A stretch of DNA of 64,000 nucleotides from Chiloscyllium plagiosum (taxonomy: Eukaryota). Made by a program: the position numbers and the translations under genes. Below are positions 6,276 through 52,300 of this stretch, piece by piece; position 1 is the first letter of the stretch, and each line of letters opens with the position of its first letter. The DNA is taken from positions 8,207,552-8,271,551 of the forward strand of contig NC_057718.1 in NCBI RefSeq assembly GCF_004010195.1. The letters run 5' to 3'. The notes under the pieces were generated by a model. The model saw only the letters and a program-made list of their open reading frames with translations, was not told the origin of the DNA and did not search any database.

Positions 6276-6495
6276 GTTGAAACTTTATTGCTGGAACAGC
6301 ACAGCAGGTCAGGCAGCATCCAGGGAACAGGAGATTCGACGTTTCGGGCACAGGCCCTTCTTCAGGAATTCCTGAAGAAGGGCCTGTGCCCGAAACGTCG
6401 AATCTCCTGTTCCCTGGATGCTGCCTGACCTGCTGTGCTGTTCCAGCAATAAAGTTTCAACTTTGATCTCCAGCATCTGCAGACCTCACTTTCTC
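6276..6495. mobile_element. Palindromic PLE-derived mini-element, family A (young copy)
   Basis: Perfect 186-bp palindrome at 6276-6461 (centre GAATTC) plus a 34-bp one-sided extension. 14-bp TSD CTTTCTGGTATTTC at 6262-6275 and 6496-6509. Confidence 0.92.
6363..6409. ncRNA. Minimal type I hammerhead ribozyme motif (mirror copy on the minus strand at 6328-6374)
   Basis: CTGAAGA (6372-6378), extra A, stem II GGGC-CTGT-GCCC, GAAA, CG, TC with predicted cleavage after C6399. Stem I is CAGGAATTC paired with GAATCTCCTG (one bulge). Stem III is reduced to the palindrome ACGT. Confidence 0.8.
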
Positions 6496-7947
6496 CTTTC
6501 TGGTATTTCACCAAGTGCTGTTCTCGTCTTCCACCTGTAACCCCATATGTTACTGCTTTTTAAATTGCAGTCTAACTGCCTCCTCTATTGGTGGTGTAGC
6601 CAGTTTAAGACAGATTTAAGATAATGGGGGGGGTGAGGAGGGGTGGATGTTGAAAATATTTTTAATTTATTATGTTTTGAAGGATGGAGGTCAGTGCTGA
6701 TGGGATGGTGGAAAAAAATCAGTATTAACTTAAAAAAGAGCACTAGATATACTCGGAGTGCCATGGGTAACTAATGAGATAGGTTGACTAATGGATAGCA
6801 CTTTCGAAGAGCCATCACATGCACAATGGACTGAACAGTCACCTTCTGCTGTGCTCTTGGAAACTATTTAGTAATCACTGGTAGGCCATCAGAATAAGGA
6901 GGAATGGGGGGGGGAGGGGGGGGAGGAGGAGATTACAATGACAGTGCTATTACTGAGATTGATGAAGAGGCTGTTCAGATGAAGTTGAAATGCCCCAATT
7001 CACTGTGCCCTGGAACTGTTACATGAAAAGGGCTGAGTGATTAGAGCAACGAGTAAGAGCCAACATTGAAGGACATTTTAAAATGCTCCTAACTCCCACA
7101 CGATTCCGTTTCAAAGATGGCTTTGAAGACTAGCATTAAATGGATGGGAAATACACAAGTTTTAATTGATTGTACAATACAGGAAAACCTCACATTTGCA
7201 AACCATCTTATTCTCCAAAACATCCAAGCATTCTCACCATTATTTACTCTTTGAAATGTAGCTACTTGTTACATAGCAGAGTTAGCAACCATTCTACTAC
7301 TGATATGCCACAAACCAAAGGGCAACTGAGCTAGTTAATTGAGGAGTGAGGGGGGGCACTTAATTGGGCAGGATGAAGAGTTGCTTGACACAGAAGAATA
7401 GAGGTTTACAACTTGGTAATAATAATAAAAAGAGTATGACAAGCCCTTCCCAGGTTTCACCACAAAGGCATAGTCTTAAAATGAGCACCCATGTTTCACA
7501 CGGCAGAGTGAGTTCAATGCCTTTCTTCTTCCACCTGAATCCCTCAAAGGCATTACATTTTCCAAGACATAGCCTGAACTCCAAACTTTGTGTAATTTAC
7601 TTGCCTTTAATGAAACAGCGCCAAAGACATAATTAAGTAGAAAGAATGACTGGAGCCACTAGAAAATAGAATATTTAGCACGTAGGTCATCCAAGGTAAT
7701 TAAAAGTATCAGATATCTTCACAAAAGCAGTCTAAGTATGCAATCAACTTTTCATTTGTCACACATGCAAAATGATAAAACTGAAACCTTCAATTCGATT
7801 GCAGCCTGCAATTCACTCCCTGATATTCATTATTCTTCCTTCAAAGAACCATGTCCTCTTCCAGATTAATATCTTAGTCACTCCATGTACATTCATATAC
7901 TATCATTGTCTCTGTACCTTTTCAAAACTGAATGACAGTATAAACTA

Positions 7948-8175
7948 AAAGAGAAAATGCTGGAAAATCTCAGCAGGTCTGGCAGCATCTGTAAGGAGAG
8001 AAAAGAGCTGACGTTTCGAGTCTAACTGACCCTTTGTCAAAGCTTTGACAAAGGGTCAGTTAGACTCGAAACGTCAGCTCTTTTCTCTCCTTACAGATGC
8101 TGCCAGACCTGCTGAGATTTTCCAGCATTTTCTCTTTCGGTTTCAGATTCCAGCATCCGCAGTAATTTGCTTTTA
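7948..8175. mobile_element. Palindromic PLE-derived mini-element, family B (young copy)
   Basis: Perfect 190-bp palindrome at 7948-8137 (centre AAGCTT) plus a 38-bp extension. TSD GACAGTATAAACTA (7934-7947) / GACAGTATGAACTA (8176-8189). Confidence 0.92.
8041..8079. ncRNA. Minimal hammerhead motif with U3-A8 core variant (mirror copy on the minus strand)
   Basis: TTGACAA (8045-8051), extra A, stem II GGGTC-AGTTA-GACTC, GAAA, CG, TC (predicted cleavage after 8075). Stem I is AGCT/AGCT. Confidence 0.75.
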
Positions 8176-8669
8176 GACAGTATGAACTATCCTGACAAAG
8201 TTCTGTTTGCTTCTTTGCATTATCACCTTCCCTGCCTGGTAGATACCTTTCAATACTATTTGAAGACGCTGGAGAATTAATTATTTGTCAACATCAGTAA
8301 GCTAACAACCAGCCTCCTTCGACCTCATTGGAAAGAAAGTTCAATGCTTTGATTTGTCAAATATAACAATATCTTATTTAAAATAACTGACTTATTTTCT
8401 TAGAATCTGATAGAACTCAAAGCAAGGACCCCTGTCACTATGTTGGATCACAATGGGAGTTTGGCACACACTTCCTCTCATACTCAAGATTCACTGTTGT
8501 TGTTCAGGTGCTCCCCAAACTGCTGCGAGGGGTCCGAACTACAACCTCACATAACAAGCGCTATTTCAGTATCACTTTGACGTTTATTTGCAGATTCCAT
8601 CCAACTGGTTTTGCTGATCTGAATCACGTTTGTATTGTTGGTTATTCCACAAACCCGCCATTGTAAAAA

Positions 8670-8912
8670 CTCAAAACAAAAACTGAAATTGCTGGAAAAG
8701 CTCAGCAGATCTGGCAGCACCTGTGGAGAGAAATCAGAGTTAACGTTTCGGTTTGAGCAACCCTTCATCAGAAGTGTGTTTTGAGAAAGGGTCACTCAAC
8801 CCTAAACGTTAACTCTGATTTCTCTCCACTGATGCTGCCAGATCTGCTGAGCTTTTCCAGCAATTTCTGTTTTTGTTTCTGATTTATAGCGTCTGCAGTT
8901 CTTTCGGTTTTT
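8670..8912. mobile_element. Palindromic PLE-derived mini-element (family B-related)
   Basis: Imperfect inverted arms of about 100 bp. Minus-strand core CTGATGAAGGGTTGCTCAAACCGAAACGTTA. 10-bp TSD ATTGTAAAAA (8660-8669, 8913-8922). Confidence 0.85.
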
Positions 8913-8922
8913 ATTGTAAAAA

Positions 8923-9290
8923 GAAAACCCATCTAGTTCACTAATGTCCCTTATGGAATGAAAATCTGTCTGGTCTGGCCTACATGTAGTTCTAGATCAC
9001 AGAAATATGGTTGACTCTTAACTGCCCTCTGAACAGGCTTATCAAGGCACTCAGTTGTAATAAAACCACTAAAACATTCTCAAAGAAATGAAACTAGATG
9101 GACCACCTGGCATCGACCAATGCACCAAAATAGCAAACTCAGCCCTGTTGACCCTTCAAAGTCTCCTCACTAATATCTGGGAGCTACTGCCAAAATTGGG
9201 ACAGCTATCTCACATACTAGTTAAGCAACAGTCTGAAATATTCATACTCATGGAATTGTCGCTTACAGCTAACTTTCAGACACCTCAAAT
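8923..9290 (+). mobile_element. 5' portion of a CR1-like LINE (SINE-shared block running into the APE endonuclease start)
   Basis: aaaacccatctagttcactaatg...gactcttaactgccc followed by LLTNIWELLPKLGQLSHILVKQQSEIFILMEL, resembling the APE N-terminus (N..GL..K...L.......DI..L.E). Confidence 0.6.
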
Positions 9291-9800: not shown

Positions 9801-9944
9801 AACCAACAGTTTGAGGTATCCTGGCTAGAACCATAATGAGTTGGAGAATCTTATACTGTGTCTGGCTGCAACAATATCAAAAATAGCTCTTCTCTGAAGA
9901 ATGCTGGAGAGCAAGGATCAGAATGAAGAAATCTTCAGGGTTCC

Positions 9945-10095
9945 AAACCTCAGCAGGTCTTGGCAGCATCTGTGGAAAGAGAAACAGAGTTATTGTTTCG
10001 AGTCCAAAGACATACTGGATTTGAAACGTTAACTCTGTTTCTGTCTCCACAGATACTACCAGATCTGCTGAGTTTCCCAGCATTCGGTGTTTGTT
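9945..10095. mobile_element. Degraded palindromic PLE-derived mini-element
   Basis: ctcagcaggtcttggcagcatctgtggaaagagaaacagagtt...tttcgag / ttgaaacgttaactctgtttctgtctccacagatactaccagatctgctgag. Confidence 0.75.
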
Positions 10096-27067: not shown

Positions 27068-27254
27068 GCTGAAAATGTGTTGCTGGAAAAGCGCAGCAGG
27101 TCAGGCAGCATCCAAGGAACAGGAGAATCGACGTTTCGGGCATAAGCCCTTCTTCAGGAATTCTCCTGTTCCTTGGATGCTGCCTGACCTGCTGCGCTTT
27201 TCCAGCAACACATTTTCAGCTCTGATCTCCAGCATCTGCAGTCTTCACTTTCTC
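27068..27254. mobile_element. Palindromic mini-element, family A (right-arm hammerhead deleted)
   Basis: Arms gctgaaaatgtgttgctgg... / ...ccagcaacacattttcagc. Minus-strand core CTGAAGAAGGGCTTATGCCCGAAACGTC intact. 14-bp TSD CTCTCCTTGTGTGG (27054-27067, 27255-27268). Confidence 0.88.
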
Positions 27255-28250
27255 CTCTCCTTGTGTGGATATAGTTTGCCTCTCAGAATCTTGTCCCGAA
27301 ACAGCCAAAGAACAGTTAATCTTCAAGCTCCCACAGACGTGACTGCATTCACCTAAGGTAAGAGAATTATCTTGCAACAGATATTCCTGCACAGTTGGAA
27401 ACGAATAGGGTTTATTTCTTTTGCTGGAATGGCAAAACCAGGGCAGGAGAAAGAGACTTATGTACGATTTTCATAAAATATACTTTAACTTGGGGAGGGG
27501 GGCGCGGTGTGGGCACAGGCAATGAAGAAATGCTGAAAAAACTTGAACCGAGTCCTTTATTCATAGCCTATGAGTGAAAGCATTCTCTATTTACACACAC
27601 TGAATAGTGAAATCCCATTGTACCACTATAGATATTGGAGAAGACACAGGGATAACCTATCATTGAAAAGCTTAGTGTCAATGCCACCCATAACTGCACA
27701 ATGGGTATAACTTTAAATTAAGAAGCGGTATTGCTGCTCCTGCAGCTGAGAAGGGTATTTGAAAATCCTTCGGCATGCATGTAAAAGAGGAGGATGGACA
27801 TCTGCCCTGAAGACTGATACTCCTCTCAGCATTGATACTACCAAATAAATTCAGCTCAATTGGCCGCAGGAGCCCGCTGTTTAAAAAAGAATGCTTGCCA
27901 CTTCCATGAAATGGAAACACTTCAGAAATGATTTTTTTGAAACTTGACAGTGTGACATAGTTACACAAACCATTCTTTCTCTATTGACTGCCTCCAAGTT
28001 TTCATGGCTTTGCTATGTGATTGCATTCTTGATTAGATATACTGGAAATTCAGCTTCAGGCTATTGAGCTATTGGTTGCTGCTGTCAAATTGACATAATT
28101 CTTCATTAAATGTTCTGAATGAATGAAACATATTATATTGTGCTGTTGCTAGTACCCAGGCCACATGTATAGCATCAGATCATTACATCTTGTTGTGCAC
28201 AGTATCAATTATCTTATTGCTGGAAAACTTGGAAAAGATTCTGATCTTAC

Positions 28251-37700: not shown

Positions 37701-39346
37701 GTATTTCACAAAATGCATGCTTTCTAGTTATTGATAGTTTATTGTTAACAGTGGATCCCTGGAAATATTTAGTGCATTGCTTTTAGTACCCTCATCAACA
37801 TTAACCCTCATTAATTCTAAAGCAGGGCACTCAAAACTGCAATTATTGTTCTAAGTACATTTTGGCCTGTGAGTTGTATAGTTTTGAGTTTAGCATTTCA
37901 ATTGTGTATTTACAATGCCTATTTACAAGTCATTGGATCCCTTGAGCTTCTTTTTAAAAAATCAGCTTTATTGACTTATTTACTTAACACCATGAAAAAT
38001 GACAACTGTGAACCCCCAGGCTCTCGTTTCTCCTCCACTGCTTTTACAGTTTTATCATCTTATGGTGCATTCTTCTCCTTTTCTTTCCTAATCATTATTA
38101 TCAGCTCCCACTGTTCCAACGTAAATTCCATCTTGTATCTGCCGAGTCCAATATTTGATTTGTCTCAGTCAGAAGCATCTTTGCAATGGGGAATTGAGTT
38201 TTTCTACAGTGAGTTATGACAATCTCGAATGAACTATCTGAAAGGTTGAGAGAGCTACAGGCAGAGGCAGGGGCAGGGAGACAGACTGAGAAGCACCTTT
38301 CGTGGAAAGGCTGTTAGAGCTCTCAGAGCTACTTTGGCTACGCAGCCTGTTAGTTCCAGAAGACACGTAACAGAAGGAAACCAAGAGAAATGGGGATTCA
38401 GAATATGCAATTAAACTTTGTTGTTCAAAACCAAAGTATTCAACCAGGAAAATAAATTACAAAACTCAATCTGAAACTTGTTATGTGACCCTGGGGATCT
38501 TAAAGACAGCACTATAAATCAAAACCTGTCCTTTTCATTAGTTCCCAAATCCCTCCTCCCCTGAAAGCTGGTTTTCTGGGAACAGAATGTTTTTCATTTT
38601 ATGCGTATAAGCATCAAACTCTCCCAAGCTCCAAATGTGCTTGGTAGCTGGAGAGGGCTCGATGCAGAAATAAAGCTCTCCGTACACTGGCCAACTAATA
38701 AACCCAACTGAAGCAAAACACACCTCCTATCAGAGCTAATGTATCACTTCAACAGTGTATACATAGGAATGTGGCTTGAATACATGAACTCTGCATCAGA
38801 AGCAACGGCCTTTCAATCAGGATTAACATTTAGGACACCTAAGGCAAGAGTTTTAGATGCAGAATGGGGGCCAAAATGAGATGCAGGGAGTGGAACTTCT
38901 TGCTACATGCTGGCATGCCAGTTTGCTGGGACTAATTTCCCTAATTTGGTTTTGGGTGCCTGAGCTACACTTCAGCAAGTGGTTCTTGCCAGTCAGCGAG
39001 CAGGCTCTATGGTCAGCTGAAAGATAGTACCCTCCCAACAAATGGTATGGAGGGGGGAGGGGATTTAATCTGAAAGGGACTCTCTCTACCATTCATTATG
39101 AGTATCAAACCATATTTACAGCCCAGTGTCATGGTTTTGACCCACTGAGGAAATCCTGTCGCGCGTATTTCAGCACAGGTAAATCTACTCTACTCCCTCC
39201 CAAACTTAGGTATACTCTATTGCAACAAGTCTGAGCAAAGCAATTTCAAAATAAAATAATCAAGGAATAGAGAAAACTTTCAACTCATTAGAGGTGTTCT
39301 ACAGTCCATTTCTCTAATGTGGATGAACAATAGGGTTGACACACTT

Positions 39347-39552
39347 AATAAAAGCAAATTACTGCGGATGCTGGAATCTGAAACCAAAAGAGGAAATGCT
39401 GGAAAATCTCAGCAGGTCTGGCAGCATCTGTAAGGAGAGAAAAGAGCTGATGTTTCGAGTCTAACTGACCCTTTGTCAAAGCTTTGACAAAGGGTCAGTT
39501 AGACTTGAAACGTGAGCTCTTTTCTCTCCTCACAGATGCTGCCAGATCTGCT
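39347..39552. mobile_element. Palindromic mini-element, family B (opposite orientation to the 7948 copy)
   Basis: Same centre gtcaaagctttgac and TTGACAA core on both arms. 14-bp TSD GGGTTGACACACTT (39333-39346, 39553-39566). Confidence 0.9.
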
Positions 39553-40174
39553 GGGTTGACACACTTGTTCACTTGTTTGTCCAGATAGATGGGCTGATTT
39601 GTGAAATATATTCCTGATTGTCTCAATGTTAACTACCATTCAGTTTTTAAATATTGATCTCATTCTTTCAACTTGCCATATGAACCAATCTAAAGTATGT
39701 CTTGCATTGGCCATTTGAAGATTCAATTATGACAACCTTAAGTAGCAACTTATCTTTTAGCAGTGCCCCAATATTTTGAGATCGCATTATAATAGGTGGG
39801 AGTAATATTGCAGTTATAAAGTTACCAAGAGAATGCTTCAGATTATATGTTAACTGTTCAACAAAGGAAAAGGAGAACTGTCCTTTCTGAGCCAAGTTGG
39901 GGGTTGCAGTCATTCTAATGTCCAAAACTCTGATATTTTCAGATTACGGCTTTTTTTTTGTGTTTAACATGTTGGTAAAATCAAGTCAAAGCAAGTAGAG
40001 ATACAGCGCAATGCTGACTCATCATCACCTTCACAGCACAATGCCTTCTCTATTCTGTCACTTTTCACTGTATCAAGTGGCTTGCAACTAATAACCAGAT
40101 AAAATCACTTGCATAAACCAGTCACCCACAAACTCCATATCACGCCCACTACACAGGATTGCTTTGTGTTTCAC

Positions 40175-46700: not shown

Positions 46701-49320
46701 NNNNNNNNNNNNNNNNNNNNNNNNNNNNNNNNNNNNNNNNNNNNNNNNNNNNNNNNNNNNNNNNNNNNNNNNNNNNNNNNNNNNNNNNNNNNNNNNNNNN
46801 NNNNNNNNNNNNNNNNNNNNNNNNNNNNNNNNNNNNNNNNNNNNNNNNNNNNNNNNNNNNNNNNNNNNNNNNNNNNNNNNNNNNNNTCTCTTTTATATCT
46901 TTCCCCTCTCACCCTGAACCTATGCCCTCTAGTTCTGGACTCCCCGATCCTAGGGAAAAGACTTTGTCTATTTATCCTATCCATGCCCCTCATAATTTTG
47001 TAAACCTCTATAAGGTCACCCCTCAGCCTCTGACACTCCAGGGAAGATAGCCAGCCCCAGCCTATTCAGCCTCTCCCTATAGCTCAAACCCTGGCAACAT
47101 CCTTGTAAATCTTTTCTGAACCCTTTCAAGTTTCACAACATCTTCCGATAGGAAGGAGACCAGAATTACATGCAATATTCCAAAAGTGGCCTAACCAATG
47201 TCCTGTATATCCGCAACATGACCTCCCAACAACTCTTATCTCCTCAAAGAAATTCCAGCAGATTTGTCAGGCATGACCTCCCCTTGATGAAACCATGCTG
47301 ACTTTGCCCTGTTTTACCATACACTTACAAGTATTCAGAAATCTCATCCTTCATAATGGATTCCAGGATCTTACCCACAATCAAAGTGAGGCTAATCAGT
47401 CTATAGCTTTTAGTGTTTTTCCCTACTCCCTTTTCAAACAGGGGTGTCATATTAAGTGATTTTCCAGTCCTCTGGGACCTTCCCTGATTCTAGTGATTCC
47501 TGATGGATCCTGATAACGCCTCCACTCTTCTTCAACTATCTCCCTTAGAACTCTGGGGTGTAGTCTATTTGGTCCAGGTGATTTAACAATCTTTAGGCCC
47601 TTCAGTTTTTCTAGCACCTTCTCCTTGGTGGTGGCCACATATTCTGCTTTATCCCCTCACTCTTTTTAATTTTTGGGATATTACGTGTGTCTTCCACCAT
47701 GAATATTGACTCAAAGTAATTATTCAGTTCCTCATCCAGTTCCTTGTTCACCACTATTATCTCTCCATCATCATTTTCCAGTGGCCCAATGCCCACTTTT
47801 GCCTCTCTTTTGCCCTTTATATTGCACTAAACAAATTCTTACAGTTTTCCTTTGTATTATTGGCTAGCTTACCCTCTTATTTAATCTTCTCCCTCTTTTT
47901 TGTTGCCTCTGTTGGTCTTTGCAAGCTTTCTAATCCTCTGGTTTCCCACTGCCCTTCGCCGTATTATGCATTTTCTCTTTTGCTTTTATGCTATCCCTGA
48001 CTTCTGTAGTCAGCCATTATTGCCTCGACCTTCCTGTACCATGCTTCTTTTTTGTCAGGATGAATCACTGCTGTGTCTCCTGAATTACTCCCAGAAACTC
48101 CTGCCATTGCTGTTCTACTGTATTTCCTGCCAGGCTCCTCTCCCAGTCAATTCTATACGGCTCCTCCATCATGCCTCTGTAGTTGCCTTTATTCAGCTGT
48201 AATACTGTTACCTCTGATTCTATCTTCTCCCTCTCAAATTGCAGAAGTAAATTCAATCATATTATGATCACTGCCTCCTAAGGATTCCTTCACCTTAAGG
48301 TCCCTTACTGAATCTGCTTCATTGCACAGCACTAAATCCAGTATTGTCTGTTCCCCAGTGGGTTCCATCACAAGCTGCTCCAAAAAGCCATCTCGTGGAC
48401 ATTCAACAAATTCCTTTTCTTGCAATTCACTACCAACTTGATTTTCCCAGTCCACCTGCATATTGAAATCCCCCATGATCACTGTAACTTTGCCTTTCCT
48501 ACACATCTTTTCTATCTCGTGTGTCTTGCGCCACAGCTCCAGACTACTATTTGGAGGCCTTTACATAACTCCAGCTACGGTTTAATTTACCTTTGCGGTT
48601 CATCAATTCTACCCACACAGATCCTACAGCATCTGACCCTACTTCGTTTCTTACTATTGATTTAATTTCAAGGTTACCCATCAACCTTCTACGTGCTCGT
48701 GAAAGAAGTCTCAGCCTGTCCAGCCTCTCCTTATAACTCAGACCATCTATTCCCAGCAACATCCTGGCAAATCTCTTTTGAACCCTCTCCTGTTTAATAA
48801 CAGCGTTTCTATTACAGGGTGAGCAGAAGTGGGCACAGTACACCAGAAGAGACCTCACTAAAGTCCTGTACAACCTCATCATGACGCCCCAACCCCTCTA
48901 CTCAAAGGTCTGAGCAATGAAGGCAAGCGTGCTGAACGATTTTTTAACCACCTTGTTTGCATGTGACGCAAACTTCAAACAATTATGTATCTGAAACCCT
49001 AGGTCTGTATATTTTACAACATTACTCTAGGCCAGACTTTTAACTGTATAAATCCTGACCTTGGGCTCATGCCCGAAACGTCGATTCTCCTGTTCCTTGG
49101 ATGTTGCCTGACCTGCTGCGCTTTTCCAGCAACACATTTTCAGCTCTGATCTCCAGCATCTGCAGTCCTCACCTTCTCCTTTTTTTTCAAAACCAAAATG
49201 CAATACCTCACATTTATCCAAATTAAACTCAATCTGTCATTTGTCAGCCCATTGACCCAATTGATCAATACCTTTTTGTAGTCTTAGTTATCTTAGATAA
49301 CCTCCTTCACTGTCCAGTAT
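43779..49320. mobile_element. Nested CR1/SINE cluster
   Basis: HER1 tail (-) 43779-44130; long CR1 (-) 44130-45270 continuing at 47230-48670 (RT to APE); HER1 tail (-) about 45272-45340; CR1 (+) 45340-46150; HE1 tail (-) 46152-46297; HER1 (-) 46887-47230; CR1 (-) 48670-49320 containing a family A half-element at about 49062-49180. Confidence 0.85.
46298..46886. other. Assembly gap (589 N)
   Basis: Run of N, flanked by an HE1 SINE and a HER1 fragment. Confidence 0.99.
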
Positions 49321-52300
49321 CATGAGTAAATTCTCCACTCATATGAAAAACTAGCATTAGCAATTAAAAATAAAATCAATATAAACATTGGGGATGCACA
49401 GAAGGGAAAAGCAAAAAGATAATATTTCTCGTCTAATTCATTTAGTGGATACTGATAACCTTAGATTGTTCAGCTGTGGGATTACTCTTTCCTTTCCTTT
49501 TATATTGTCATACTCCATTTGGGACAACGTGCTGATACTTGAGTTCTGCAACTCCCAGAGTTGTCACAAGTGTTAAAGATTTAATCAAATTACTTAATGT
49601 CTCCAATTTATCTGTTTGATGAACTCAGGTAAACAAAAAAAAACTGATTAGGTTTCTGTACTTAAGAAGAAACTACTACTTATTATAAAGAGATCAATTC
49701 TAGCTACAAGAAAACAAAATCTGAATTATCAACTTATAGCTCTGCTAGCTTAAGTTCTATCTCTTCCTAAACCTCAAAATACATGCAGGCTGACAGAGAA
49801 ATAAACATACAACGTTGTCAAGGCAAAGGGAATATTGGAGACTGACAGGTCAGGAGCACCAGCCTGTGGGAATTGGTGAATAATCAAAAAGAGTATTAGT
49901 CTTTTCTGCTTCTTCCAAGTCCCTTTGATCTCTATTTCCAGATCCTATTAGTTGTTCTCTGAAGACACAAGGTGATTGACATGTTAATTGATCAGCTTTT
50001 CAGTTGCTGATTAGAGGCAAAGAGTTAATAGAAAATGGTGGGAGTGAATAACTAGCTATGCTTCATTTTCACCATGTCACTGCAGAGAGGGGGGGAGAAA
50101 CAGAAACACACTGTTTTACAGTCTGAAGGCTTCTGAAGGCTATTGAACACACACAAGCTGTTCATCTGCCCAGAAGCCAGAGAATTATTCTCATGCTGAT
50201 GACTCCTGATCCACAAAACTGGGTTGTGACTGCACAAACCTGTCAGCAATCTGTCTCCAGGCAAATCTTGTTCTGCGCACAAATCCACGTGCATCATATG
50301 TCATCGTCACTGCTTGAACAAAGCAACAGTGTAAACACAATTCACATCAAGTTCCAGTAACTTGTTTTTAAAACTGTTTATTGTATAGAGTCATACAGCA
50401 CAGAAACAGACCCTTTGGTCCAACCTGTCCATGTTGATCAAGTATTCTGAACTGATCTAGTCCCATTTGCCTGCAATTGACCCATATCACTCTAAACCTT
50501 TCCTACGATCCTTCTTCCATTTTTGTCCACAATCCAAAATAAAGAATAAAAAACTATGATCTTCAAAAATGGGCAATACGGTACAGATTGCCATTAGAAC
50601 AAGAAAAAATAAACAATATTCTAAATCCAGATGTGAAATTCAAGTCAACAGCTTTTAGACACCTCAAATTGCTGACACTGCTCTTGAGAAACATTGGCCA
50701 AAACGTAACTCATGACAATAGTTACAATAACATTGCCCCTCCAAATAAACCAATGGGTATAGCACTTTGGCAAAAAAACAGAAATTGCTGGAAAATTTCA
50801 GCAGGACTGGCAGCATCTGTGGAGAGAAAGCAGATTTAGCATTTCGGTTCCAGTGATCCATCTTCAGAATGACATTTCCTTCTTTCAGTTTCTTTGGCAC
50901 CTAGATTTAGTACAAAGTTAAACTGCTGTAGAAACCAGATGCAACTTAAATTAAGGCACACTGCTTAATCTGTACTAACAACACACCATAAAGCCCAATA
51001 TGAATGATACCTGTGGTGGACAGAGTGTGTTGTCTGAAGAGTTGGTGGTGAAAGCAGATTCAACAGTAACTTTTAAAAGCAAATTTTTAAAAACAAACAA
51101 TTCATTCACAGCATGAGGATATTGCTAGTTATGCCTATCACTAATTGCCCAGAGGACAATTAAGAGTCAACCACATTGCTGAGGGTCTGTAGTCACCTGT
51201 AGGGACAGATTAGGTAAGGATGGAAGGTATCTCCCCAAAATGTCATTCATCAATGAGATGTTTTTTTTCCCCTACCAATGGACTCATGGTCATCATTAGA
51301 ATTTTAATATCAGGTTAATGCCCAGAAATAATACCATTCGGCTGTTGCTTCCGCAGCCTCTAATTGGACATGGAACTGAAAATATTTATTTTCCAGGACT
51401 ATGGAAGATGAAACGAGTGAGTCTAACTGAGTATCCCTTTAAAACAGTTGGCACGGCAATGGTGTCTCATATGGCTTCCTTCTGTGATGTATGATAATAT
51501 GGTACATCTGTGACTGCCTGCTACAGCTAAGATTACAGCACCAAATAAGCTTGAACGATTGAGGTTTCGGAGACACCTAACTGTGAAATTCTGACAAAAG
51601 TGTTGCTTAGAAGTTATCAGGTTTCAGGAGGTGCTCCGAAGGTTTTCCCACAAAAATTTCCAAACAAGTAAACGAAGCACATGGAATACATGCTTATAAG
51701 TGAGGTTTTATAGCACTACTTATGCTCTGTTTCAACATGGACCTTTCTCCCATTCCATTCTACTTACTCATTAGTTCCCTCCGCTTGCTAATGGAAAAAG
51801 AACGAGACTTACAGGCTATGCTTTCAAACAATAGAGTTCTTGTAATGGCCATGAAAGTGAAAAAGAATCAAAAAGAATCTTACAAACATCTTCCAAAGTT
51901 GGCTTATTTGAATTTGATATTCTGCTCTGCACTGCACAAACGTTGCAGCTAACCTCTTTCTTAAGCTTACACTGTTTAAACAATATGCCAAAGTCAATAA
52001 TTCAAGTGACAAAAGCATCAGCAAAGTCTTCAATGTATTTTTTTATCAGCTCTGCTGGACATCAATAGATGTTGCCAGTCAACATCCACCACTGCAGTCA
52101 ACAGTTTCAACAATGCAAGTCATTCCTACAATAATTGTGAAAGAAAAAGATAAGGCAGATATCCATTAATACAGAATTTAACAATTTCAAAATCCCAAAA
52201 CATTTTACAACCAAAGGAGTATTTTGAAGAGTGGTCACTATTGAAACATACATATTGGCAGCCAGTTTAGAACAAAGCAAGCTCCCACAAACAATGTGAT

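Follow-up and report, generated by a model that had tools for sequence, protein, structure and literature searches.

Does a hammerhead motif that has exchanged the C3-G8 pair of its core for U3-A8 testify to selection and, if so, to selection for catalysis or on the fold? The question is raised by a short mobile element, here called family B, which is present as two copies in a 64-kb stretch of Chiloscyllium plagiosum contig NC_057718.1 (the whole stretch is referred to as the window). Positions 3 and 8 form a pair which is said to have been first seen by Martick and Scott (2006) in the full-length hammerhead structure. In copy 1, the window sequence 8041-8079(+) reads AGCU UUGACAA A GGGUC AGUUA GACUC GAAA C GUC AGCU and, judged by its sequence, is predicted to be a minimal type-I hammerhead motif without helix III (minimal hammerhead ribozyme, min-HHR). 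According to our analysis, U3-A8 is the fixed state of family B, whereas C3-G8 is retained by its sister, family C, and by family A, which is abundant.

The U3-A8 core and its distribution

Both arms of copy 1 carry an intact motif, as a preliminary description of this DNA had stated: helix I is AGCU/AGCU, helix II is GGGUC/GACUC with one G.U pair, and GAAA and the GUC site are in place. An extra unpaired A between A9 and G10.1, absent from that description, completes the family B motif. The conserved nucleotides U4, G5, A6, A9, G12, A13 and A14, the A15.1-U16.1 pair, and a cleavable H17 are present on both arms. The majority state in the sampled family B arms is the same for U4 (44/45), G12 (37/45) and H17, which is C in 44/45, and 40 of the 45 arms have U-A at positions 3 and 8; the search pattern itself prescribed G5, A6, A9, A13 and A14, which are therefore shown only for the window copies and in the exact-match counts. 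After GAAA only C, G, U and the cleavage nucleotide remain, by which A15.1-C15.2-G16.2-U16.1 form a self-complementary ACGU. The missing helix III, the ACGU, the AGCU/AGCU helix I, and the extra A, which occurs in all three families, are the traits of the min-HHRs of Penelope-like elements (PLEs), for which PMC4209133 lists no helix III, a self-complementary ACGU, a helix I of 4 to 5 bp, and an unpaired nucleotide before stem II.

The 35-nt stretch from UUGACAA to AGCU has four matches in the window and none in 100 shuffles of it. UUGACAA stands in place of CUGAnGA in 4/4 arms of two head-to-head family B elements which, since they carry different flanking duplications (gacagtat versus gggttgacacactt), are separate insertions, and this much of the preliminary description is borne out. 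In copy 2, the cleavage triplet has decayed on both arms. Each element is a zero-spacer inverted repeat, with arms of 101 nt that are 98% complementary in copy 1 and arms of 72 nt that are 93% complementary in copy 2, and copies 95 to 100% identical to copy 1 are present elsewhere in the genome. Since the two motifs of an element lie on opposite strands, one transcript contains a hammerhead and its antisense and not two ribozymes; this is how the earlier wording "both arms" has to be understood.

Genome-wide counts were obtained with exact patterns in the 3.56-Gb assembly, where reversed-pattern controls gave 0 matches each. The 23-nt family A tail has 50,033 matches, the family C motif 1,923, and the family B tail 1,653. 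Family B comprises about 3000 arms, at a median of approximately 3 to 4% from the majority sequence. The nearest relative of family B is family C. They have the helix II stem GGGUC/GAC(C/U)C in common, and C is the older of the two, with a median of 11.5% from its majority sequence against 4.2% in B.

The combinations at positions 3 and 8, tabulated as the preliminary description had proposed, give U3-A8 and not C3-G8 as the consensus of family B: among 3352 family B-context 21-nt cores, 3160 are U3-A8, 157 C3-A8, 29 U3-G8, and only 6 C3-G8. The claim that the double change is fixed in a family thus holds. We fetched all 6 C3-G8, 14 of the 29 U3-G8, and 20 of the 157 C3-A8 places. Only three of the latter have AGCU upstream and are true T>C changes, the "C" of the others coming from the other arm or from the flank at the junction. 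The median divergences of the minority-state copies (4.2%, 4.7%, and 4.2%, compared with 3.1% for 37 U3-A8 arms) do not set them apart from ordinary copies, which argues for mutations after insertion rather than for an older amplified intermediate, and no amplified intermediate subfamily (C3-A8, U3-G8, or C3-G8) was found in family B context. Outside family B, U3-A8 is rare, since 97 of the first 100 listed of 2598 family-neutral U3-A8 matches are of B type. In family A, 36/43 arms are C3-G8. The first 100 listed of the 1923 family C cores comprise 79 C3-G8, 8 C3-A8, 6 C3-C8, 4 U3-G8, 2 G3-G8, 1 A3-G8, and no U3-A8. This bears on the family C element at 8670, whose minus arm reads CUGAUGA and whose plus arm reads UUGAGAA, as had been noted; the suggestion that the latter is decay of this one copy is upheld by the absence of U3-A8 from these cores and by the G12>U change in the same arm.

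Contigs from three public runs with three organism labels also cover the family B core and have no alternative letter at positions 3 and 8, and two private changes of the reference B copy are flagged in all three runs. These contigs were chosen by 90% likeness to family B, so they indicate that family B with U3-A8 exists there and not that other states are absent.

Two observations concern rare states. The long-form B copy at locus L202 (G000:C49:7255787-7256307) has CUGACGA, that is, C3-G8 with a CpG at positions 7 and 8, and an altered TATA region; with its divergence of 5.2% it is not clearly older than the family, so that an ancestral relic and a double mutation are indistinguishable here. 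Long forms make up 6 of the 14 fetched U3-G8 copies, and two of them, L207 and L210, share a tttttgt before AGCU that was seen in no other long form and may represent a very small U.G sub-lineage.

Divergence of the hammerhead fold

The three families, compared by a regular-expression scan with exact register, differ in their majority pairs in a way that preserves pairing. The pair 3-8 is C-G in A, U-A in B, and C-G in C; 2.1-1.1 is C-G, U-A, and U-A; 2.2-1.2 is U-A, C-G, and U-A; 10.4-11.4 is C-G, U-A, and U-A; and 10.2-11.2 is G-C, G.U, and G-C, respectively. The double changes at 2.1-1.1, 2.2-1.2, and 10.4-11.4 are covariation that supports helices I and II, although with three lineages only the independent events are few. 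The 3-8 switch behaves like these helical covariations.

Between the majority sequences of B and C, 10/39 motif sites and 16/93 downstream sites differ. Four of the motif differences are two double changes, one at 2.2 with 1.2 in helix I (U-A to C-G) and the other at 3 with 8 (C-G to U-A). The remainder are 11.2 (G-C to G.U), N7 and H17 (U to C, both allowed), and three loop positions. None of the approximately 12 invariant nucleotides has changed and no stem pair is broken, so that 10/10 differences are compatible with the fold, an outcome which 10 random substitutions on the motif would produce with P = 9e-6 to 4e-4, according to the transition bias. Since all the differences are fold-compatible, the hammerhead fold appears to have constrained the source lineage while family B arose, and we consider this comparison of sequences good evidence of selection on the fold in the lineage leading to B. 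The preliminary description had gone further and proposed selection for catalysis. This further step is not supported: it would rest on the 3/8 change, which is one event, and the 5' ends of the copies, described below, bear no trace of cleavage. A U.G wobble is an easy and possible intermediate of the switch.

Copy formation and competing explanations

In order of sequence, a family B unit consists of AGCU, UUGACAA, A, helix II, GAAA, C, GUC|AGCU, a conserved block of about 60 nt, a proximal 3' end, and a 38-nt tail. The arrangement of units was studied in 60 B and 60 A copies, the first 60 of 100 places listed per tail pattern, so that neither the hammerhead nor the 5' end influenced the choice. 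An inverted second arm is present in 35/60 B and 38/60 A copies, the rest being single-armed, 5'-truncated, or longer. Another sample of 40 B loci, picked by their core, includes 22 two-armed copies; 21 of these have exactly one tailed arm, one has no tailed arm, and none has two. The tailed arm reaches the distal 3' end (positions 132-135) and the other arm stops at positions 96 to 116. The target duplications of the window elements are variable and measure 8 to 14 bp.

An inverted 5' copy, a tail of 30 to 40 bp at one end, and a target duplication have been described for PLEs (PMC8557442), and the tail of a PLE matches two internal reverse-transcription start sites, with the protein nicking and extending both strands (PMC11167929). 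The inverted, 5'-truncated arm, the tail at one end, and the target duplications of our elements are PLE-type traits of this kind. In two loci, an open reading frame (ORF) of the GIY-YIG endonuclease type lies approximately 250 to 430 nt upstream of the family A hammerhead, with scores of 23.2 and 20.5 bits (Pfam cut-off, 22.6). The short frame of family B, which starts at a conserved AUG, closes at a UAA in the tail; together with the ORF search reported below, this makes B best read as non-autonomous.

The 5' ends of the B copies in the tail-anchored sample do not gather at the cleavage site. Exactly at AGCU, which is 35 nt before the cleavage site and 4 nt before the core, start 15/60 right and 18/35 left arms, and 30/60 right arms start within -37..-30 of the site. 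Six long forms (L004, L009, L017, L024, L025, and L153) extend further upstream by 290 nt or more of conserved sequence and, in 6/6 of them when aligned, TATAAATA lies 31 nt upstream of AGCU. The position of this TATA sequence suggests an internal promoter that would launch promoter-less short copies from AGCU. There is no excess of B 5' ends at GUC|A and, by this indirect measure, no sign of in vivo self-cleavage in the B copies; truncated B arms form no cluster near the site (2/12, P=0.55). In family A, 10/20 truncated arms fall within an 8-nt span near the site (binomial P=1.3e-5), and 3 of these 10 arms are at -3, where exact cleavage does not explain them. The B retrocopies would then start at a promoter-defined 5' end and not at the cleavage site, in agreement with the finding that unprocessed RNA is the main template of a PLE whose insertion in vitro is unchanged by hammerhead mutants (PMC11167929). 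One raw-read RNA run had 0 reads on the stretch, and the three other runs consist of contigs, from which RNA ends are not readable.

The explanation that we hold to be the probable one, with some reserve, is that the motif is a min-HHR at the 5' end of a non-autonomous, PLE-derived retroposon of about 135 nt, in which U3-A8 is kept by selection on the fold. The unit would have been built from the 3' end (the pseudo-long terminal repeat region) of PLEs. Source copies would transcribe an RNA of about 135 nt from AGCU, positioned by TATAAATA, and a PLE reverse transcriptase/GIY-YIG endonuclease supplied in trans would nick both target strands. Target-primed reverse transcription would begin from the distal site on one strand and from the proximal site on the other. 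The palindrome would result when the two cDNAs, on reaching the 5' ends of the RNA, are linked through AGCT, which is self-complementary. The passage from C3-G8 to U3-A8 would have occurred once in the source lineage, through two transitions, and would have been kept because purifying selection acted on the hammerhead fold in that lineage. To be competent, the ribozyme probably has to form an intermolecular dimer via ACGU or to be helped by protein, and its cleavage would belong to a step other than the one that sets where inserted copies end. Lunse et al. (2017) reportedly described cleavage by dimers of small PLE hammerheads.

Several results weigh against this explanation. At gathering score, the Rfam hammerhead models match nowhere in the 64 kb, and no hammerhead family is among the 27 Rfam matches at E<=10 in 7900-8950, although such a mismatch is expected for a motif without helix III. 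In the thermodynamic optimum fold of the B RNA, helices I and II persist, and an additional GAC/GUC pairing, made possible by N7=C, runs through the core; this fold has -10.0 kcal/mol against +2.7 kcal/mol for the bare two-helix hammerhead. Of 45 sampled B arms, 20 no longer have the CpG in the ACGU palindrome (about 44%; TG in 11, CA in 9), so that nearly half of the genomic B copies could no longer form the dimer helix. Arms beginning near the site are fewer in B (2/95 within -3..+5) than in A (10/98 within -3..+4; Fisher P=0.033). Genome-wide, B junctions comprise 272 of the full/full kind, 24 in which a full arm meets one that starts at the cleavage site, and 1 in which both arms start there; the counts for two control junctions, which use a 3-nt microhomology elsewhere, are 8 and 9, and the approximately 3-fold excess proves little because the cleavage-site junction has a 4-nt microhomology (AGCT). 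The 3/8 switch is a single event in one lineage, and any two changes of a source copy look "fixed" in the progeny, because descent alone spreads them. Moreover, CUGACGA is present in 2/6 C3-G8 B-context copies, and if the ancestor read CUGACGA, G8>A was a hypermutable CpG transition. No reverse transcriptase or endonuclease ORF was found next to the B long forms. Finally, PLE min-HHRs cleave poorly in vitro (PMC4209133), and the PLE assayed in PMC11167929 inserted in vitro unchanged by hammerhead mutants, with no RNA-seq reads ending at the site.

Part of this evidence lends itself to a neutral account, in which the hammerhead of family B is a relic, two source-copy transitions were inherited by hitch-hiking, and their match at positions 3 and 8 is a coincidence. 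The single event in a single lineage, the lack of an excess of 5' ends at the cleavage site, and the indifference of PLE insertion in vitro to hammerhead mutants (PMC11167929) all accord with it, as does the nature of the changes, since both are transitions, N7=C makes the ancestral 7-8 step a CpG, and CUGACGA and UUGACGA variants exist. We nevertheless regard this as unlikely, though the most serious of the alternatives, because coincidence would have to extend to all 10 motif differences between B and C, including the second double change in helix I (random P <= 4e-4), would have to spare all of the approximately 12 invariant nucleotides, and would have to leave no amplified mismatch subfamily. 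A bolder reading is that B is a natural and dated crossing from C-G to U-A in the core of a live vertebrate retroposon, accompanied by a compensatory change in helix I, with the fold selected for a step other than the making of copy ends. Such a step could be RNA dimer formation, or protein-assisted handling in a two-template, two-strand integration complex that gives one tailed and one tail-less arm. In this specific form we think it rather improbable.

It is also conceivable that the core changes were kept for DNA or RNA pairing and not for catalysis. The B-specific bases at 2.2, 3, 7, and 8 (window 8041-8055) make a near-palindrome, CUUUGACAAAG, which is 10/11 self-complementary and lies beside AGCU, and which might aid cDNA or RNA pairing in head-to-head integration. 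All four changes raise the self-complementarity, copies L007 and L018 are joined through the CUUUGACAAAG stretch instead of AGCT, and 272 loci have the exact AGCT-centred junction. We deem this quite improbable all the same, given that two B 5' ends co-fold without forming the CUUUGACAAAG duplex, so that an RNA dimer through this near-palindrome is not favoured; that the head-to-head share is the same in B (35/60) and A (38/60); and that the change at 1.2, which lies downstream of the cleavage site and matches that at 2.2, is left unexplained. The reading that departs furthest takes the element for a miniature inverted-repeat transposable element (MITE)-like DNA transposon or a microRNA-type hairpin with a core-like tip. 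It can point to the perfect zero-spacer inverted repeats, to the lack of hammerhead model matches, and to the only Rfam matches being sub-threshold microRNA hairpins (for example, MIR6457 with 109 bits against a gathering score of 140), families which we treated as generic hairpin matches. It is largely refuted by the tail on one arm only, the many copies that lack an inverted arm and either begin at AGCU or are truncated at the 5' end, the target duplications varying from 8 to 14 bp, and the covariation of helices I and II in three families that keep the core. The GIY-YIG ORF upstream of long forms and an architecture which, down to the unpaired nucleotide before stem II, is that of the published min-HHRs (PMC4209133) further make this reading extremely improbable.

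Some observations on the long forms are added here. The B long forms are palindromic around a run of N, and runs of N lie directly upstream of long forms or at palindrome centres at L100-L102, L121, L131, L153:8818-8950, and L154:5959-6868. These runs hide the part where an ORF would be and may be assembly gaps at palindromes. LINE (long interspersed nuclear element)-type reverse transcriptase ORFs adjoin PLE fragments at L153:5321-6727 and L155:5189-6955 (RVT_1, 66.7 bits in L155), and we read them as unrelated neighbours.

Known systems and other elements of the window

The covariation of positions 3 and 8 is already in the literature. A natural change from C3-G8 to U3-A8 was reported in 2011 by Perreault et al. 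(PMC3088659), who also cite Przybilski & Hammann 2007 for U3-A8 covarying cores being active in vitro. The positions and nucleotides are those of family B, but the motif there is the canonical three-helix one, whereas that of B is without helix III and known from sequence. Cervera & de la Pena 2014 (PMC4209133) give U3-A8 in PLE min-HHRs, namely, the Cercyon elements of Schistosoma mansoni, with about 1,300 matches. Helix II is 7 to 8 bp in the min-HHRs of that paper and 4 to 5 bp here, and B differs further in belonging to a vertebrate-size (3.56 Gb) genome, in being one young family with C3-G8 sisters, and in having a TATA-positioned RNA start 4 nt before the core. Family B is thus a clean new example of an already known variant. 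No report of family B itself was found in the literature searched, which is weak evidence of absence, the supplementary alignments of PMC4209133 lying outside that search.

The closest functional comparison is with PAc, the Poseidon PLE of Anolis carolinensis (Frangieh et al. 2024, PMC11167929). Its hammerhead likewise lies just upstream of the region where reverse transcription starts, and two start sites 30 to 40 nt apart give an optional tail, with both strands nicked and extended, as is proposed for B. However, PAc is autonomous and has the canonical C3-G8, whereas B has no ORF of its own and U3-A8; the tail of B is strictly one-sided (21/22), while PAc in vitro shows no strand difference. 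That the 3-8 pair matters in PAc was shown by the single changes C3G and G8C, either of which stops cleavage, and by their combination, with which cleavage partly returns. Non-LTR retrozymes, as presented by Li et al. 2026 (bioRxiv), are, like B, non-autonomous and PLE-related, with type-I hammerheads thought to be dimeric. They are direct tandem repeats that give rise to circular RNAs, though, and B copies are single or head-to-head inverted, with no two sense ribozymes in one transcript. In the window, the two motifs of each element lie on opposite strands, which is not the retrozyme arrangement; tandem arrays were not searched genome-wide. With MITEs and microRNA-like hairpins, B shares shortness, abundance, and near-perfect inverted repeats, but it differs from MITEs in its variable 5' truncation, one-sided tail, variable duplications, single-arm copies, and link to a GIY-YIG ORF.

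What family B adds is a well-resolved vertebrate case, that is, a young family of about 3000 arms beside an older C3-G8 sister in one genome, in which no intermediate with a mismatch has been amplified. Nature thus offers a ready-made set in which to test whether catalysis is the reason for the retention of PLE hammerheads, which is in question because a PLE with a dead ribozyme inserted equally well in vitro. In addition, the tallies of 5' ends and of one-sided tails put numbers, at the scale of a genome, on aspects of PLE integration for which only qualitative descriptions existed so far.

All three related families are represented in the window, and their coordinates are given in the table.

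Table. Hammerhead-bearing elements of the window and their parts (positions within the window; mismatches refer to the 35-nt stretch from UUGACAA to AGCU)
Feature	Position	Strand	Remarks
Family A element	6276..6496	+	Flanked by tttctggtatttc; CUGAAGA-A-GGGC..GCCC-GAAAC-GUC on both arms; arms 100% complementary
Target-site duplication, copy 1, left	7934..7941	.	gacagtat, read directly; may reach 7946 with one mismatch (13 nt)
Family B element, copy 1	7947..8175	+	Head-to-head retroposon units; left boundary uncertain by ~5 nt (7942-7947); arms 7942-8042 and 8043-8143
Minimal hammerhead motif, copy 1, inverted short arm	8006..8044	-	35-nt match 8006-8040, 0 mismatches
Minimal hammerhead motif, copy 1	8041..8079	+	35-nt match 8045-8079, 0 mismatches; U3 = 8045, A8 = 8050; predicted cleavage between 8075 and 8076
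38-nt tail, copy 1	8138..8175	+	Right arm only; stretch between proximal and distal 3' ends of the unit
Target-site duplication, copy 1, right	8176..8183	.	gacagtat, read directly; may reach 8188
Family C element (sister of B)	8670..8902	+	Flanked by attgtaaaaa; minus arm CUGAUGA; plus arm UUGAGAA, G12>U, UAAAC
Family C-like head-to-head copy	9940..10090 (approximate)	+	Both arms truncated inside the hammerhead
Family A element	27068..27255	+	Flanked by tctccttgtgtgg; right arm begins at about the predicted cleavage site
Target duplications, copy 2	39333-39346 and 39553-39566		14 nt, gggttgacacactt
Family B element, copy 2	39347..39552	-	Tailed arm on minus strand; short arm truncated
Hammerhead motif, copy 2, minus arm	39445..39483	-	35-nt match 39445-39479, 1 mismatch; UUGACAA kept; CGUC changed to CAUC
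Hammerhead motif, copy 2, plus arm	39480..39518	+	35-nt match 39484-39518, 2 mismatches; UUGACAA kept; C11.1>U and C17>G (GACUU, GUG)
Family A copy	49063..49179	+	One arm only, its 5' end truncated within helix II

Across families A, B, and C, a block GAUGCUGCC(A/U)GA(C/U)CUGCUG...UUCCAGCA is conserved (e.g., 8098-8128 and 6408-6446), and it is by far the deepest part in the public contigs. The block opens a frame MLPDLL(R/S)FSS, which is closed early in B and in the family C copy at 8670, and it may be a protein-binding region or the region where reverse transcription is initiated.

In the family C element, the arms (8674-8878) are 90% alike overall, but the likeness, estimated by eye, is about 94% in the outer parts and about 77% in the central hammerhead part. 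Two different RNA templates, or a faster change at the centre of the palindrome, are possible causes. A lone match to a loose pattern, UUGAAGA...GAAACAUA, at window 52218-52260 has no family context and is probably due to chance.

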